DNA of 38,223 nt, taken from contig CAKPKZ010000001.1 of the NCBI GenBank assembly GCA_934167435.1, forward strand, positions 1 through 38,223, in the 5' to 3' direction. A program made the position numbers and the translations under genes. This DNA comes from an uncultured Clostridia bacterium (GTDB lineage: Bacteria; Bacillota; Clostridia; TANB77; CAG-508). Below are positions 18,308 through 24,827 of this stretch, piece by piece. The notes beneath the pieces are model-generated. The model ran no database searches and had not been told where the DNA came from. It saw only the letters and a list, made by a program, of their open reading frames with translations. How positions within the stretch are numbered: the first letter of the stretch is position 1; every line of letters begins with the position of its first letter.

Positions 18308-18666
18308 AAGAAAATAGAAACTGTAATTGCAATAATATGCAAGAAAATACACAATATGTGTCAGCAGAAATGAACAATCAATGTCAATGTAATACAGAAC
18401 CTCAATCAGGAGTTGATTGTAATTTAAGAAAAGAAATGATAGACAAAATAAGATGTTACGAATTTGCAATAAATGAACTTGCTTTATATTTAGACACTCA
18501 CCCAGATGAATCAAAAGCTCTTTGCCTTCATAGGAAATACTGCAAAGAAGCGAAAGAATTAAAAGATAAATATCAAAAGGTATTTGGACCACTTACCATA
18601 AATTATCCTTGCAATAAATGGAGATGGTTAGAAGAACCTTGGCCTTGGGAAAGGGGGAATTTTTAA
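18298..18666 (+). CDS. cotJB: Spore coat protein CotJB
   Basis: CotJB core IRCYEFAINELALYLDTHPDESKAL. The start is uncertain: GTG 18298 or ATG 18337. Confidence 0.75.
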   Translation: MLLEENRNCNCNNMQENTQYVSAEMNNQCQCNTEPQSGVDCNLRKEMIDKIRCYEFAINELALYLDTHPDESKALCLHRKYCKEAKELKDKYQKVFGPLTINYPCNKWRWLEEPWPWERGNF

Positions 18667-18989
18667 TGTGGACTTATAATAAAACTTTACAATACCCAAT
18701 AAATATAAAGTGTCCAGATCCTAGACTTGCAAAAGTTATTATTTCTCAATACGGTGGACCTGATGGGGAACTTGCTGCTTCTTTAAGATATTTATCTCAA
18801 AGATTTGGAATGCCTGATCAAAAGGCAAAGGCTATATTAAATGATATTGGTACAGAAGAATTAGCACATTTAGAAATGGTTGGGGCAATAGTACACCAGT
18901 TAACTGCAGGAGCTTCAATAGAAGAAATAGAAAAAGCAGGATTGGGTTCATATTATACAGACCATGGGGTGGGTTTGGAATATATCTAA
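18666..18989 (+). CDS. cotJC: cotJC 5' segment (Mn-catalase family spore coat protein). Native sequence runs to about 18967, then reads into the inserted element and stops
   Basis: TAATG overlap with cotJB. MWTYNKTLQYPI...SQYGGPDGELAASLRYLSQRF...GTEELAHLEM...GLGSYYTDHG, then non-homologous VGLEYI and a stop. Confidence 0.88.
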   Translation: MWTYNKTLQYPINIKCPDPRLAKVIISQYGGPDGELAASLRYLSQRFGMPDQKAKAILNDIGTEELAHLEMVGAIVHQLTAGASIEEIEKAGLGSYYTDHGVGLEYI

Positions 18990-18990
18990 A
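18951..18990. repeat. attL-like junction of the cotJC intervening element
   Basis: GACCATGGGGTGGGTTTGGAATATATCT. It shares CATGG.GTGG with the right junction. The element-side arm is an imperfect inverted copy of the right-end arm. Confidence 0.6.
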
Positions 18991-19046
18991 TAAGAATTTA
19001 AATAAATAATTGATAAAAAAAATTAAATGGTTCTTTTTCATGAACT

Positions 19047-19217
19047 TTAAAAAATAAAAATGTGTTGTCTTAATTCTTCCAATGTACAAACTCTACCATT
19101 TTTAATATCATCTTCACTTTCTTGAAGTTTGGCAAAGAAAAATAAATCATAAATAATATCATATAGAGTATTTTCTTGTACATTTACTTGATTTAAAGTT
19201 TTTTTCATAAAATCCAT
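19047..19217 (-). CDS. Small hypothetical protein (56 aa), antitoxin-like C-terminus
   Basis: Not in the ORF track (<60 aa). RBS AAAGGAGG precedes ATG at 19217. Product: MDFMKKTLNQVNVQENTLYDIIYDLFFFAKLQESEDDIKNGRVCTLEELRQHIFIF. Confidence 0.4.
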   Translation of the reverse strand: MDFMKKTLNQVNVQENTLYDIIYDLFFFAKLQESEDDIKNGRVCTLEELRQHIFIF

Positions 19218-19232
19218 TAATATAACCTCCTT

Positions 19233-19364
19233 TTAATTTGGATTTTTATCTTCAAGCATTTCTTTTAGAGTTTCATAATTAAAATGCTTATCAGTTCCAG
19301 GAATAATAGTTGTTTCATCTTCGCCATACCTTTTAATATATTCCATCATAAGTTTAAATACCAT
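19233..19364 (-). CDS. Small hypothetical protein (43 aa)
   Basis: Product: MVFKLMMEYIKRYGEDETTIIPGTDKHFNYETLKEMLEDKNPN. Lies downstream of the recombinase on the same strand. Weak RBS. Confidence 0.25.
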   Translation of the reverse strand: MVFKLMMEYIKRYGEDETTIIPGTDKHFNYETLKEMLEDKNPN

Positions 19365-19412
19365 TTCGGTTGGTTTTAATCCATCAAAAATTTGTAAAAT
19401 TTATACGATATA

Positions 19413-22848: not shown

Positions 22849-22890
22849 AAAGACAACCGAAAGACTAATTTTAGTCTTTCGGTTGTCTTT
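22849..22890. terminator. Bidirectional intrinsic terminator between lemA and the convergent gene
   Basis: Perfect 19-bp stem AAAGACAACCGAAAGACTA / TAGTCTTTCGGTTGTCTTT flanked by A and T runs. Confidence 0.8.
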
Positions 22891-22898
22891 TACAGGAA

Positions 22899-23483
22899 TT
22901 AGAACTCTTTCCATGCCCAAGCCACTCTCATTCCCTCGAAAACCTCTGTTATTGGAATGGCTCTCTGATCTGCATACATAGGATCTTCCACTAAAAAGTT
23001 TGCTCTGCGTACACCAACCAAGTTAATGAAATGATGATCATAAAGTACAGTTACTATCTTTTCTTTTTCAAGATATGAAAAAATATCCTGTACATAACTG
23101 AGTCTGACTGCACCAAGGCGATCAAATAAATGATGCCATGTGCCCTTGCCAGGTTCATAATAGCCCATTTCTGCTGCTTTCTCTGTTAAAACGGAGATAG
23201 AGTAATGCTTCTTAGAGCCATGTTCAATACAGAATATAGCACAACCGCTTTTTGCTAATGTTGAGCTACCATATTTCCAAGATTCATACTCTGGCTGATA
23301 CTTAATGTGCTCCAATGAGATTAAGCAATCTTTGTAACTATACTTTTGGGTTGCAGACTCCTTAAGCGTTGTAGAAATCTCTGTAGACCACTTTTTATAA
23401 CTTTCATATTGCTCATGAGTCATCATACGTGGTTCGAGATTATCGATGCCTGTTGTTACTTTTCCAAATGTATACTCTGTCAT
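22899..23483 (-). CDS. Hypothetical protein, possible papain/C39-like cysteine peptidase fold
   Basis: 194 aa. Candidate nucleophile context AKSGCAIFCIEHG and downstream DHHFINLVG. Assignment by motif resemblance only. Confidence 0.35.
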   Translation of the reverse strand: MTEYTFGKVTTGIDNLEPRMMTHEQYESYKKWSTEISTTLKESATQKYSYKDCLISLEHIKYQPEYESWKYGSSTLAKSGCAIFCIEHGSKKHYSISVLTEKAAEMGYYEPGKGTWHHLFDRLGAVRLSYVQDIFSYLEKEKIVTVLYDHHFINLVGVRRANFLVEDPMYADQRAIPITEVFEGMRVAWAWKEF

Positions 23484-23839
23484 ATTGTACTCCTACCTAG
23501 CTAGCTCAATGCCATGGGTATTAGCTAGGATTTTTTTCGAATTTTTTATTGAGCTAATTAAATTATACCAAAAAATCAATTTTATGTCAATTTTTCAATG
23601 TCTGTATCTCTTATTATAGCAGGTGCTGTAAGGAATAGTTGAACATTGCTGTTTGATATTTTCTTCCATCTAACTATTCATTGGAACTTTTGAAAAAGTA
23701 TGGTTTTTTGTAGGATTTTATGGTATAATTCAGAAGTAGTAAAAAAGGGAGATTATATGCTTAAATTACACAATTTTTATAATTTTGAATTACTGAAGAT
23801 TTATTTTAAAAATATAAGATATGAAAGGAATGCAAAAAA

Positions 23840-24506
23840 ATGGAAAATAAATATAACTTAACTTTAGAACAAAATATATTTTTAGCCAAAAGAAACTTAG
23901 TTGATAACATATATGCAAATGCAAAAATGGAAGGATTAAACATTACTTTTCCACAAACAAAAACAATATTAGAAGGAGTAAATGTTCCAGAATTAAAAAT
24001 AGATGAAATTCAATGTATATTAAATTTAAGAGATGCATGGAAATATGTTATAAATAATATTTCAGAAGAATTTAATTTAGATTTTATTTGTAAAATTAAC
24101 GAATTTGTAGCAAGAAATGAAAGCCTTTCTTGGGGAACATTAAGAACACGGTAATGTAGAAATTACAGGAATAAGTTATATTCCAAACATTCCTAATAAA
24201 AAAAATGTGGAAAAAGAAATAAATGAAATTTTGCTAATACAAAATCCTACAGAGCGAGCTATAGAATATATGTTATATGGTATGAGAAACCAATTATTTT
24301 GGGACGGAAATAAACGAACAAGCACTATTTGTGCAAATAAAATTATGATTGAAAATGGTGCTGGAATTATAAAAGTACCAGATAATAAGTTACAAGAATT
24401 TAATATTTTATTATCTGAATTTTATACAACAAATAATAAAGAAAAAATTAAAGAATTTATATACAACAATGCTATTGACGGTATTGTTTTTGAAGATAAT
24501 AATTAA
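23840..24506 (+). CDS. Fic/Doc (Fido) family protein; frame interrupted by one extra C at 24149; core motif degenerate (Q in place of catalytic H)
   Basis: Track ORFs 23840..24154 and 24207..24506 fuse if C24149 is skipped: ...SLSWGTLRT|GNVEITGISYIPNIPNKKNVEKEINE... Motif QLFWDGNKRTS versus Doc-type HxFxD(A/G)NKR. Confidence 0.7.
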
Positions 24507-24510
24507 AAAA

Positions 24511-24556
24511 GGATATCTAGCACACCCACACCACATGGAGTGGATGTATATCCACA
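24511..24556. repeat. attR-like junction of the cotJC intervening element
   Basis: GGATATCTAGCACACCCACACCACATGGAGTGGATGTATATCC. The element-side arm is inverted relative to the left-end arm (ACCCAC...ATAT). Confidence 0.6.
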
Positions 24557-24827
24557 ATCTGCTGCAGGTGTTCCTTTTGATGCTACTTGTTTAGCTTGTA
24601 AAGGTGATCCTATAGCAAATCTACAAGAAGATCTAGCAGCAGAACAAAAAGCCAGAGCAACTTATGAAAAGTTAATAGATTTATGTAGAGATAACCCAGA
24701 TGTAATAGATCCATTAAGATATTTAAGAGAAAGAGAAGTAGTACACTTCCAAAGATTTGGTGAAGCCTTAAGAGGAGTTCAAGATAAATTGGCAGACAAA
24801 AAATTTTATATGAATAATTGTAATTAA
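24539..24827 (+). CDS. cotJC: cotJC 3' segment
   Basis: (G)VDVYPQSAAGVPFDA...KGDPIANLQEDLAAEQKARATYEKLI...LRYLREREVVHFQRF, the second metal-binding half of Mn-catalase/CotJC proteins. It has no RBS or start of its own. Confidence 0.88.

Follow-up and report, generated by a model that had tools for sequence, protein, structure and literature searches.

In a stretch of 38,223 nucleotides from an uncultured Clostridia bacterium (assembly GCA_934167435.1, contig CAKPKZ010000001.1; the whole stretch is referred to as the window), an insert of 5,571 bp that carries a large serine recombinase (LSR) breaks the spore coat gene cotJC between codons 100 and 101. Exact removal of this insert restores the complete gene in silico, the same species also occurs with an empty site, and one natural contig carries the junction at which the two ends of the insert meet. 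We consider it probable, though with clear reservations, that the insert is a gene-intervening element comparable to skin, which leaves the chromosome of the mother cell and thereby rebuilds cotJC. Its capacity for precise excision is supported by these natural junctions.

The split gene and its rejoining

The split gene comprises the following features:

18666–18964, plus strand: 5' part of cotJC, codons 1–100, delimited by comparison of its open reading frame (ORF) with uninterrupted homologues
18963–18972, plus strand: attL core CATGGGGTGG, common to both ends, with the presumed crossover dinucleotide CA at 18963–18964
18965–24535, no strand: intervening element of 5,571 bp, missing from the conspecific contig L161 and with its ends joined as attP in contig L162
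24534–24543, plus strand: attR core CATGGAGTGG, common to both ends, at an offset of 5,571 bp
24536–24827, plus strand: 3' part of cotJC, codons 101–196 and stop, delimited in the same way as the 5' part

In the integrated state, the 5' ORF reads into the element and ends with the tail VGLEYI at a stop at 18989. If 18967 is joined to 24539, an ORF of 591 nt results whose 196 codons are not interrupted by a stop, and its product matches Pfam Mn_catalase (1.1e-51) over residues 1–184 and aligns to the Anabaena Mn catalase 6j42 over residues 5–188. At the junction the protein reads ...YYTDHG-VDVYPQ... (junction-spanning peptide ...YYTDHGVDVYPQ...). A search of protein collections with the joined CotJC returned more than 7,900 homologues, the best of which is an uninterrupted protein of 196 aa with 99% identity, and in an alignment to nine uninterrupted homologues (92–99% identity) all residues from Y96 to Q107 are invariant, with no gap, loss or duplication at the junction. 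The gene is likewise uninterrupted in all 80 species representatives that were inspected; these represent the best 80 of 333 matches in a scan of genome contigs, a sample that is unusable for estimating the share of species with a split cotJC. By homology to solved structures, the ligands of the Mn catalase, which we take to be E35, E65 and H68 on the 5' half and E136 and H170 on the 3' half, are distributed over both pieces, and the split would hence part the N-terminal metal ligands of CotJC from the C-terminal ones.

More than 20 independent assemblies of the species, as well as about 21 host lineages, show the same split. An assembly artefact can be ruled out as the source of this arrangement, since species and element recur together throughout these assemblies.

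The original prediction for this DNA had regarded the two pieces as halves of one CotJC and had proposed that the 18967–24539 join restores a 196-codon ORF. Both proposals hold, as the alignment with uninterrupted homologues is free of gaps and the joined gene is 99% identical to the uninterrupted conspecific gene. Residues lost or duplicated at the junction, or relatives in which the halves are independent genes, had been named as findings that would speak against it; the nine uninterrupted homologues gave no sign of the former, and the relatives carry one uninterrupted gene. A search of relatives, also proposed there, yielded both an uninterrupted cotJC and an empty site (contig L161), and the description of the insert as one with a serine recombinase near one end, oriented opposite to cotJC and without virion genes, proved to be correct.

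Attachment sites, empty site and circle junction

Both junctions carry CATGG(G/A)GTGG (18963–18972 and 24534–24543), of which CATGG is invariant in 47 attL and 40 attR sequences and is the only invariant core common to both. The element ends are conserved as ...AGGATAGTTTACAAACACACACCA-CA-TGGGGTGGGTTTGGAATATATCC..., and the attP rebuilt from them shows a dyad symmetry of 17/22 centred on the CA of CATGG, compared to at most 11/22 for attB. Because the symmetry centre of attP falls on CA, we place the crossover at this dinucleotide, which is thus the presumptive site of strand exchange. A dyad-symmetric attP, a less symmetric attB and an identity of only a few bases are the usual layout of serine integrase sites, and this layout is found here.

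Contig L161 shows the same order dpaB-cotJA-cotJB-cotJC and is 99.0% identical to window positions 17286–18972 and 98.9% identical to positions 24534–24979. Its site reads ...ACAGACCATGGAGTGGATG..., and the overlap of the two alignments equals the 10-nt core exactly; since they abut across it, L161 represents a conspecific, scarless empty attB. Precise excision, carried out in silico, accordingly gives an ORF equal to the uninterrupted conspecific gene.

The other product is represented by contig L162 (ENA ERZ28615119), which is 99.98% identical to window positions 15953–24543 and stems from the same strain. Past the right core it continues with 55 nt at 100% identity to window positions 18963–19017, that is, the left end of the element, so that an attP junction is formed and the layout is host-attL-element-attP. 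The base that follows CATGG is the element-side G and not the host-side A, matching the expectation for a crossover within CATGG. As a 10-nt core is too short for a k-mer misassembly, reads that span attP must have existed, and excised circles, or a tandem copy, of the window's element therefore occur in nature. No second attP junction was found when about 20 additional contigs from this species with this element were inspected, as these contain attL or attR only, and IMG/VR holds neither the attP pattern nor a relative of the recombinase.

A further contig of low coverage (L088, reverse-complement 664–1060) passes an intact attB, covers 90 nt of the cotJC 3' half and from there switches to the left end of the element at a AATTTAAA repeat. 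This is probably an assembly chimera of empty and occupied alleles in one sample.

The recombinase, its neighbours and the cargo

Within the element, the following features can be distinguished:

19047–19217, minus strand: o56, truncated antitoxin remnant of a ParE-type toxin-antitoxin module, with an intact copy in contig L039
19233–19364, minus strand: o43, small ORF accompanying the antitoxin, 76–100% identical in many elements
19413–20978, minus strand: LSR of 521 aa with the Pfam domains Resolvase, Recombinase, Zn_ribbon_recom and DUF4368
21002–21051, minus strand: recombinase promoter of sigma-A type with a 16-bp inverted repeat at 21002–21041, near-invariant in 41 distinct element sequences
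21044–21172, minus strand: o42, 42-aa ORF, candidate recombination directionality factor (RDF), kept in 41 of 41 distinct sequences
21189–21224, minus strand: conserved block before o42, possible regulated promoter or operator, kept despite unrelated flanking cargo
21399–22151, plus strand: TPM-domain membrane protein, cargo (Pfam TPM_phosphatase 7.9e-34)
22217–22792, plus strand: LemA-family protein, cargo (Pfam LemA 1.5e-58)
22899–23483, minus strand: orf194, protein of 194 aa, cargo, without a family in Pfam, PHROGs, NCBIfam and PADLOC
23840–24506, plus strand: Fic/Doc-family gene as two ORFs (23840–24154 and 24207–24506), cargo (Pfam Fic 3.6e-5)

The recombinase is encoded on the minus strand at a distance of 445 bp from attL. 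Besides its Pfam domains (Resolvase 3.4e-22, Recombinase 1.1e-28, Zn_ribbon_recom 1.3e-8) it shows the catalytic-serine motif YCRLS at residues 6–10 and a PHROG integrase match of 1.3e-107. The best PDB match is the N-terminal catalytic domain of TnpX, and the best named NCBIfam match is XisF with 104 bits, compared to a cut-off of 375 bits; to integrases of cultured phages the identity over the full length does not exceed 30%. Two faecal-virome contigs that are labelled 'Bacteriophage sp.' and gave LSR matches turned out to be unrelated, one being a chromosomal fragment of 61% G+C and the other a mobilisable element that bears a relaxase. In ten contigs from termite-gut and other metagenomes (L145–L154), recombinases with 41–47% identity to that of the window were found without a cotJC in the fetched flanks, L146 being a possible exception with a weak cotJC-like match at 13165–13257.

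In the window, the recombinase promoter consists of a -35 hexamer TTAATT (21051–21046), a 17-nt spacer and a -10 hexamer TACAAT (21028–21023), and in most relatives it reads TTGATT, 17 nt, TATAAT. The 16-bp inverted repeat spans this promoter and would form an RNA hairpin of -20 kcal/mol (z = -2.8). Directly upstream of the recombinase lies o42, the ribosome-binding site and ATG of which are conserved in all 41 distinct sequences at a length of 37–43 aa, and which would be the RDF of the element. It is preceded by a block TTTTTTGCACAAATACAAGCCCTTTTGAATAT (consensus with one y and one w position) that is conserved even beside unrelated cargo.

To describe mother-cell-type promoters of the clade, a weight matrix was built from 34 cotJA promoters of relatives, with the window's own promoter excluded from training; the resulting pattern is AC/GTCATA...CATAnAAT. 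Its top two matches in the 38-kb window are the cotJA promoter and, in second place, a site just upstream of dpaB, and since the two best matches are the cotJA and dpaB promoters, the matrix does recognise promoters of the mother-cell type. The block before o42 aligns correctly to this matrix, with a good -35 half but no CATA -10, and resembles such promoters only weakly; a sporulation-specific control of o42 is no more than plausible. The elements at a second site of the operon (site A, see below) contain an analogous ORF of 45–47 aa directly upstream of their recombinase; a regulatory motif common to these elements and those in codon 100/101 (site C) was not found.

The cargo differs in composition from its surroundings, with 35–37% G+C in the stretch of the TPM-domain and LemA genes vs 25–30% in the host. 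In the PHROGs search, no capsid, portal, terminase, tail, lysis, replication or repressor genes were found in the element, and the matches were limited to the integrase, a LemA-like match and one unknown family. Relaxase, conjugation, mobilisation or transfer genes were likewise absent by Pfam, PHROGs and NCBIfam, and o42, o43, o56 and orf194 matched no family in Pfam, PHROGs, NCBIfam or PADLOC. The two Fic/Doc ORFs correspond to positions 8–101 and 131–215 of one 230-aa family (phrog_11900), so that the Fic/Doc gene of the window's element is probably decayed. Its Doc-like motif reads QLFWDGNKR, with Q at the position expected for the catalytic His. A Fic/Doc gene split into the same two ORFs is present beside an intact cotJC in L045 (10841–11497) and L047 (12747–13394), and in L001 a 280-aa Fic gene (6670–7512) immediately follows cotJC. 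The seventh-best match of the window to the mother-cell promoter matrix is located 267 nt upstream of orf194 (23750–23785, minus strand), and the cargo might, to judge from this match, be expressed during sporulation.

With regard to the toxin-antitoxin module, the copy of o56 in L039 is 96% identical, has 66 aa and overlaps the gene for a ParE toxin of 119 aa (PF05016, 1.7e-9), and o43 is the counterpart of the C-terminal part of an 84-aa ORF in the same contig. The toxin is gone from the window's element and is retained in elements of the L087/L088 type. Copies of o43 and antitoxin (83–96% identical) with an intact ParE toxin in L039 (11432–12221) and L015 (12331–12638) are located some 1.2 kb downstream of a cotJC that is not interrupted, and no recombinase is nearby; the toxin-antitoxin block thus seems to move independently of the element.

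Distribution and selection

A metagenome scan with the recombinase yielded about 75 contigs with recombinases of 84–94% identity. Wherever the flanks suffice, the recombinase sits between an inverted cotJC 3' half and the cotJC 5' half with cotJB and cotJA, and the junction is at the identical cotJC nucleotide in all loci. While the recombinases are about 90% identical, the roughly 21 host lineages (about 21 clusters by the cotJC marker) are diverse, with 45–85% identity in CotJB and 71–88% DNA identity in cotJC. The elements range from 2,913 to 9,295 bp, and their only constant parts are the recombinase and the 42-aa ORF. Both are under purifying selection, as the ratio of nonsynonymous to synonymous divergence (dN/dS) across elements is about 0.07 for the recombinase and 0.19 for o42. 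In 17 of the 19 metagenome loci with all pieces, these rejoin to full-length ORFs of 196–214 codons.

The divergence of element and host is uncoupled, as illustrated by two pairs of loci: L127 and L096 differ by a synonymous divergence (dS) of 0.085 in the host and 0.52 in the recombinase, L096 and L090 by 1.2 in the host and 0.18 in the recombinase. It follows that the element moves horizontally between species and that integration and loss are ongoing, that is, that the system is active. In the species of the window, more than 20 assemblies contain the element, as against one empty site. The conservation of the split halves, which we had considered as proof of reconstitution, fails as such, since the uncoupled dS allows for recent insertion.

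Three insertion sites in the cotJ operon

The codon 100/101 junction (site C) is one of three sites, as three unrelated LSR lineages target a stretch of about 350 bp in the cotJ operon. Site A comprises the last codons of cotJB with the core ...GAACCATGGCCTTGG..., just upstream of an intact cotJC, and takes up elements of 4–9 kb with recombinases that are 31–35% identical to that of the window. It is occupied in L001 (450–6000), L021 (5797–10000), L047 (4660–10000), L067 (5225–10000) and L079 (1344–10000), and probably in L028, L054, L059 and L081; L112, L114 and L142 are further contigs of this family. Site B is located in cotJC codons 62–66 (core GAAT) and contains elements of about 4.8 kb with a recombinase of 24–25% identity to that of the window. 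Together with site C it is occupied in 17 of the 46 scorable loci (L091–L093, L107, L111, L113, L116, L118–L120, L126, L134, L082, L083, L086, L123 and L137). As a consequence cotJC of L092 is in three pieces, with elements of 4.76 and 5.34 kb between them (reverse-complement 2249–7000); when the pieces are joined exactly, the encoded protein equals that of L087, a contig of the same host lineage with the site-C element only. One host lineage is polymorphic, with C alone, B and C, or A and C occupied.

Some irregular copies of cotJC were encountered as well. In L091 and L135 the match to the 3' half ends at about nt 407–420, where a further insertion site or a deletion is possible; in L085 the 3' half continues into a paralogue-like C-terminus; and L067 contains a second, partial cotJC copy (13931–14335).

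It is possible, and we put this forward as a tentative proposal that may well not hold, that the cotJ operon of uncultured human-gut Clostridia offers several landing sites to miniature serine-recombinase elements of at least three unrelated lineages, the smallest of which (2.9 kb) may consist of the recombinase, the 42-aa factor and a toxin-antitoxin pair. If so, several independent mother-cell excisions would be needed to rebuild the coat operon, and a sporulation counterpart of the multiply interrupted heterocyst nif genes would be at hand. The elements have no transfer genes and yet cross species, and one could speculate that they might spread as circles that are freed by mother-cell lysis.

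The cotJ operon and sporulation of the host

Upstream of the split gene, the operon is composed of:

17871–17906, plus strand: cotJ operon promoter, predicted mother-cell type (AC...CATAAAAT), the window's top match to the matrix from 34 cotJA promoters
17933–18307, plus strand: cotJA (Pfam CotJA 9.2e-13; 124-aa gene call in identical contigs)
18298–18666, plus strand: cotJB (Pfam CotJB 2e-25)

Together with dpaB, which encodes a SpoVFB-like flavoprotein, cotJA and cotJB occupy positions 17289–18666. In B. subtilis the cotJ genes are expressed in the mother cell under sigma-E. The window further contains a gene for a cell-wall hydrolase of the SleB/CwlJ type (PF07486) at 10800–11315 and a strong match to a mother-cell-type promoter just upstream of dpaB (17222–17257); the hydrolase and this promoter match support the view of the uncultured host as a spore former.

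Excision in the mother cell or plain mobility

A mechanism that accounts for these data can be outlined as follows. A mobile gene-intervening element of the skin, SPbeta and gin kind would reside in cotJC; its LSR would recognise an attB of about 50 bp inside the gene, and the circular element would enter via its dyad-symmetric attP with the crossover at the CA of CATGG. The reverse reaction of attL with attR would then release a circle of 5,571 bp and leave a scarless cotJC of 196 codons. Control could resemble that of skin in C. difficile, with a recombinase that is expressed constitutively from a sigma-A-type promoter, and the ParE-type addiction module, decayed in the window's copy, may aid retention.

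We favour this skin-like model because of the seamless join, the identical junction nucleotide, the symmetry of attP, the attP of L162 and the selection on recombinase and o42; because three LSR lineages are found in an operon with a mother-cell-type promoter and dpaB and the SleB/CwlJ-type hydrolase are present in the window; and because the sigma-A promoter with its inverted repeats parallels that of CD1231 (PMC5025042). With respect to the original prediction, which had likened the insert to skin and SPbeta, the gene-rebuilding part stands, as the att sites, the conspecific empty attB and the natural attP junction are evidence that precise excision is possible and occurs.

A number of points speak against the skin-like model, or at least against its developmental part. 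The restriction of excision to the mother cell is a presumption, and that the uncultured host sporulates at all is deduced from its gene content. Among named proteins, TndX of Tn5397 is closest to the recombinase (full-length identity 31.5%), and TndX-type recombinases, as known from Tn5397 and Tn4451, excise without an RDF, the role that we assign to o42. No similarity of o42 to known RDFs was found in PHROGs, NCBIfam and PADLOC, and the block in front of it is without a CATA -10 and ranks 145 of 76,376 positions in the promoter matrix. Besides, the attP junction is found in one contig among about 45 of the species and element and could stem from a tandem copy. Finally, the synonymous divergence of recombinase and host is uncorrelated (Spearman -0.05), and the intact halves may reflect recent insertion instead of selection while split.

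The main rival is that an ordinary mobile element or transposon uses cotJC as attachment site, in which case cotJC would be inactivated and dispensable in the gut and excision could occur at any time for the purpose of transfer; we regard this as a serious possibility, albeit not the probable one. It would readily explain the horizontal movement and the polymorphism of the species, with its empty site in L161, as well as the sigma-A-type promoter of the recombinase and the lack of a clear sporulation promoter before o42. The relationship to a transposon recombinase, together with the DUF4368 tail, and the toxin-antitoxin module, which suggests selfish maintenance, point in the same direction. 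However, a convergence of three unrelated LSR lineages on about 350 bp of one presumed mother-cell operon is what developmentally excised elements typically show, the insertions leave no scar and keep the frame, and cotJA, cotJB and the cotJC pieces are undecayed in 17 of 19 loci, including doubly interrupted copies. Moreover, the element is present in nearly all assemblies of the species, it holds no mobilisation or conjugation genes and is strictly bound to one site in about 21 lineages, and a constitutive recombinase is also the layout of C. difficile skin, which is excised developmentally.

It is very unlikely, from our perspective, that the element has lost the ability to excise and persists as a fixed relic, with cotJC as a two-piece pseudogene and the attP-like junction as the result of a tandem duplication or a scaffolding error. 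The single attP contig and the decay of the Fic/Doc gene and the toxin-antitoxin module would fit such a relic, which is at odds, however, with the conservation of the att sites, the strong purifying selection on recombinase and o42, and the scarless conspecific empty site. Close hosts with different element lineages and sizes (L127 vs L096) also require turnover, and attP is as predicted to the base, with a 10-nt core that cannot mislead a k-mer assembler. The notion that the halves are independent genes or that the split is an assembly chimera, for which the existence of two ORFs is the only point, can practically be dismissed. It is refuted by the uninterrupted state of the more than 7,900 homologues and all 80 inspected species representatives, by the distribution of the metal ligands over both halves, as expected by homology to Mn catalases, and by the recurrence of the split in more than 20 assemblies and about 21 host lineages.

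Comparison with known elements

Elements of this kind are established, namely skin in sigK, SPbeta in spsM, vfbin in spoVFB, vrin in spoVR, gin in gerE and yin in yabG (PMC4191935, PMC5595907, PMC10747680). In C. difficile skin, the recombinase CD1231 is constitutive, with a sigma-A promoter and nearby inverted repeats, and mother-cell specificity is provided by the small protein CD1234, which sigma-E and SpoIIID control (Serrano et al. 2016, PMC5025042). The cotJC element resembles C. difficile skin in that an LSR element with the recombinase at one edge interrupts a clostridial mother-cell sporulation gene (sigK in skin, the presumably mother-cell-expressed cotJC here), in the sigma-A-type recombinase promoter with inverted repeats near +1, in the lack of functional phage genes and in a small acidic ORF close to the recombinase, where a directionality factor is expected. 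In contrast to the 14.6 kb of skin it has 5.6 kb, and its smallest relatives 2.9 kb; the 42-aa candidate RDF is unrelated in sequence to CD1234, and its sigma-E/SpoIIID control would be putative; and the cotJC element is demonstrably mobile between species. As cotJC encodes a coat enzyme and not a sigma factor, excision of the element would not gate the sporulation programme.

With SPbeta in spsM of Bacillus subtilis (SprA/SprB; Abe et al. 2014, 2017; PMC4191935, PMC5499854), it shares the combination of an LSR with a small RDF, here a candidate; in SPbeta, precise mother-cell excision rebuilds a spore-envelope gene and the element stays transferable. SPbeta, however, is an active phage of 134 kb, whereas the cotJC element is without virion, lysis and replication genes. 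Another non-prophage element that employs serine recombinases in a small mother-cell gene is gin in gerE of Bacillus cereus ATCC 10987 (Abe et al. 2017, PMC5595907), which has 28.6 kb and three recombinases in one element, as opposed to one recombinase per element and at most two separate elements per operon here. Similar to yin in yabG of Clostridium botulinum V73 (PMC10747680), the target is a clostridial gene of presumed mother-cell expression, integrated and, as is probable here, circular forms are represented and an empty attB is found in a sister strain; yin is prophage-like and unique to one strain, whereas the cotJC element belongs to a widespread family with variable cargo.

The same target gene is interrupted by a skin-like element in Laceyella sacchari FBKL4.010 (Galperin et al. 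2022, bioRxiv 10.1101/2022.02.25.481979). There, in a member of the Bacilli, the pieces measure 231 and 351 nt and lie about 8.1 kb apart, which places the split near codon 77, compared to codon 100/101 in uncultured gut Clostridia. In addition, cotJC is among the interrupted sporulation genes of Abe et al. 2013, as far as this list is cited by Kohm et al. (bioRxiv 10.1101/2021.11.22.469490). Neither Galperin et al. nor the list as cited deals with att sites, excision products, distribution or multiple sites. The claim of the original prediction that the target gene makes this a distinct new instance was thus overstated, given the Laceyella case and the entry that Kohm et al. attribute to Abe et al. 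2013. Our literature search returned no account of the codon-100 att site or of this family of elements in gut Clostridia, and none of its excision products or of a cotJ operon with more than one element. While the general concept and cotJC as a target are already known, what is new is how widely the family occurs, how small its elements can be, the hot spot with three sites and a gene in three pieces.

Outside sporulation, developmental excision in a terminally differentiated cell is known from the heterocyst elements of Anabaena and Nostoc (nifD, fdxN with XisF, hupL). XisF is an LSR as well, and several elements per gene set are each removed by their own excision; these elements belong to another phylum and developmental programme, and the similarity to XisF is at family level only. 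Among the serine-recombinase transposons of clostridia and enterococci, Tn5397 (TndX) offers the nearest named relative of the recombinase and Tn4451 (TnpX) the best PDB match, and both share a circular intermediate. Their genes include those for conjugation or mobilisation and for resistance, their crossover is at GA in targets of low specificity, and they do not require an RDF. The cotJC element differs from them in the absence of transfer genes, in its presumed CA crossover and in one strict site across about 21 lineages.

Developmentally excised elements in sporulation genes have so far been studied almost wholly in cultured Bacillus and C. difficile, and the cotJC family extends the same architecture to uncultured small-genome gut Clostridia, where it is common. 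Three recombinase lineages on one coat operon also bear on the preference of mobile elements for mother-cell genes. With the recombinase, a 42-aa ORF and the att sites, the system is naturally minimal and easy to test in a heterologous host, and the attB/attP pair with its compact recombinase represents a candidate tool for genome engineering. If excision is sporulation-specific, reads across the att junctions could be used to mark sporulation activity in stool metagenomes. For genome annotation, it should be considered that split cotJC copies of this kind should not be labelled pseudogenes.

Genomic neighbourhood

The host is an uncultured human-gut Clostridium with a low-G+C chromosome (25–30%), and the cotJ operon is surrounded by housekeeping genes (ftsZ, suf, uvrB, pta-ackA, der-plsY-gpsA, RNase P RNA and rho). 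The RNase P RNA is of bacterial class A and located at 29866–30211 on the plus strand (Rfam RF00010, 309 bits). Directly downstream of pta, two acetate kinase genes are arranged in tandem (14752–15945 and 15955–17154) with about 70% DNA identity.

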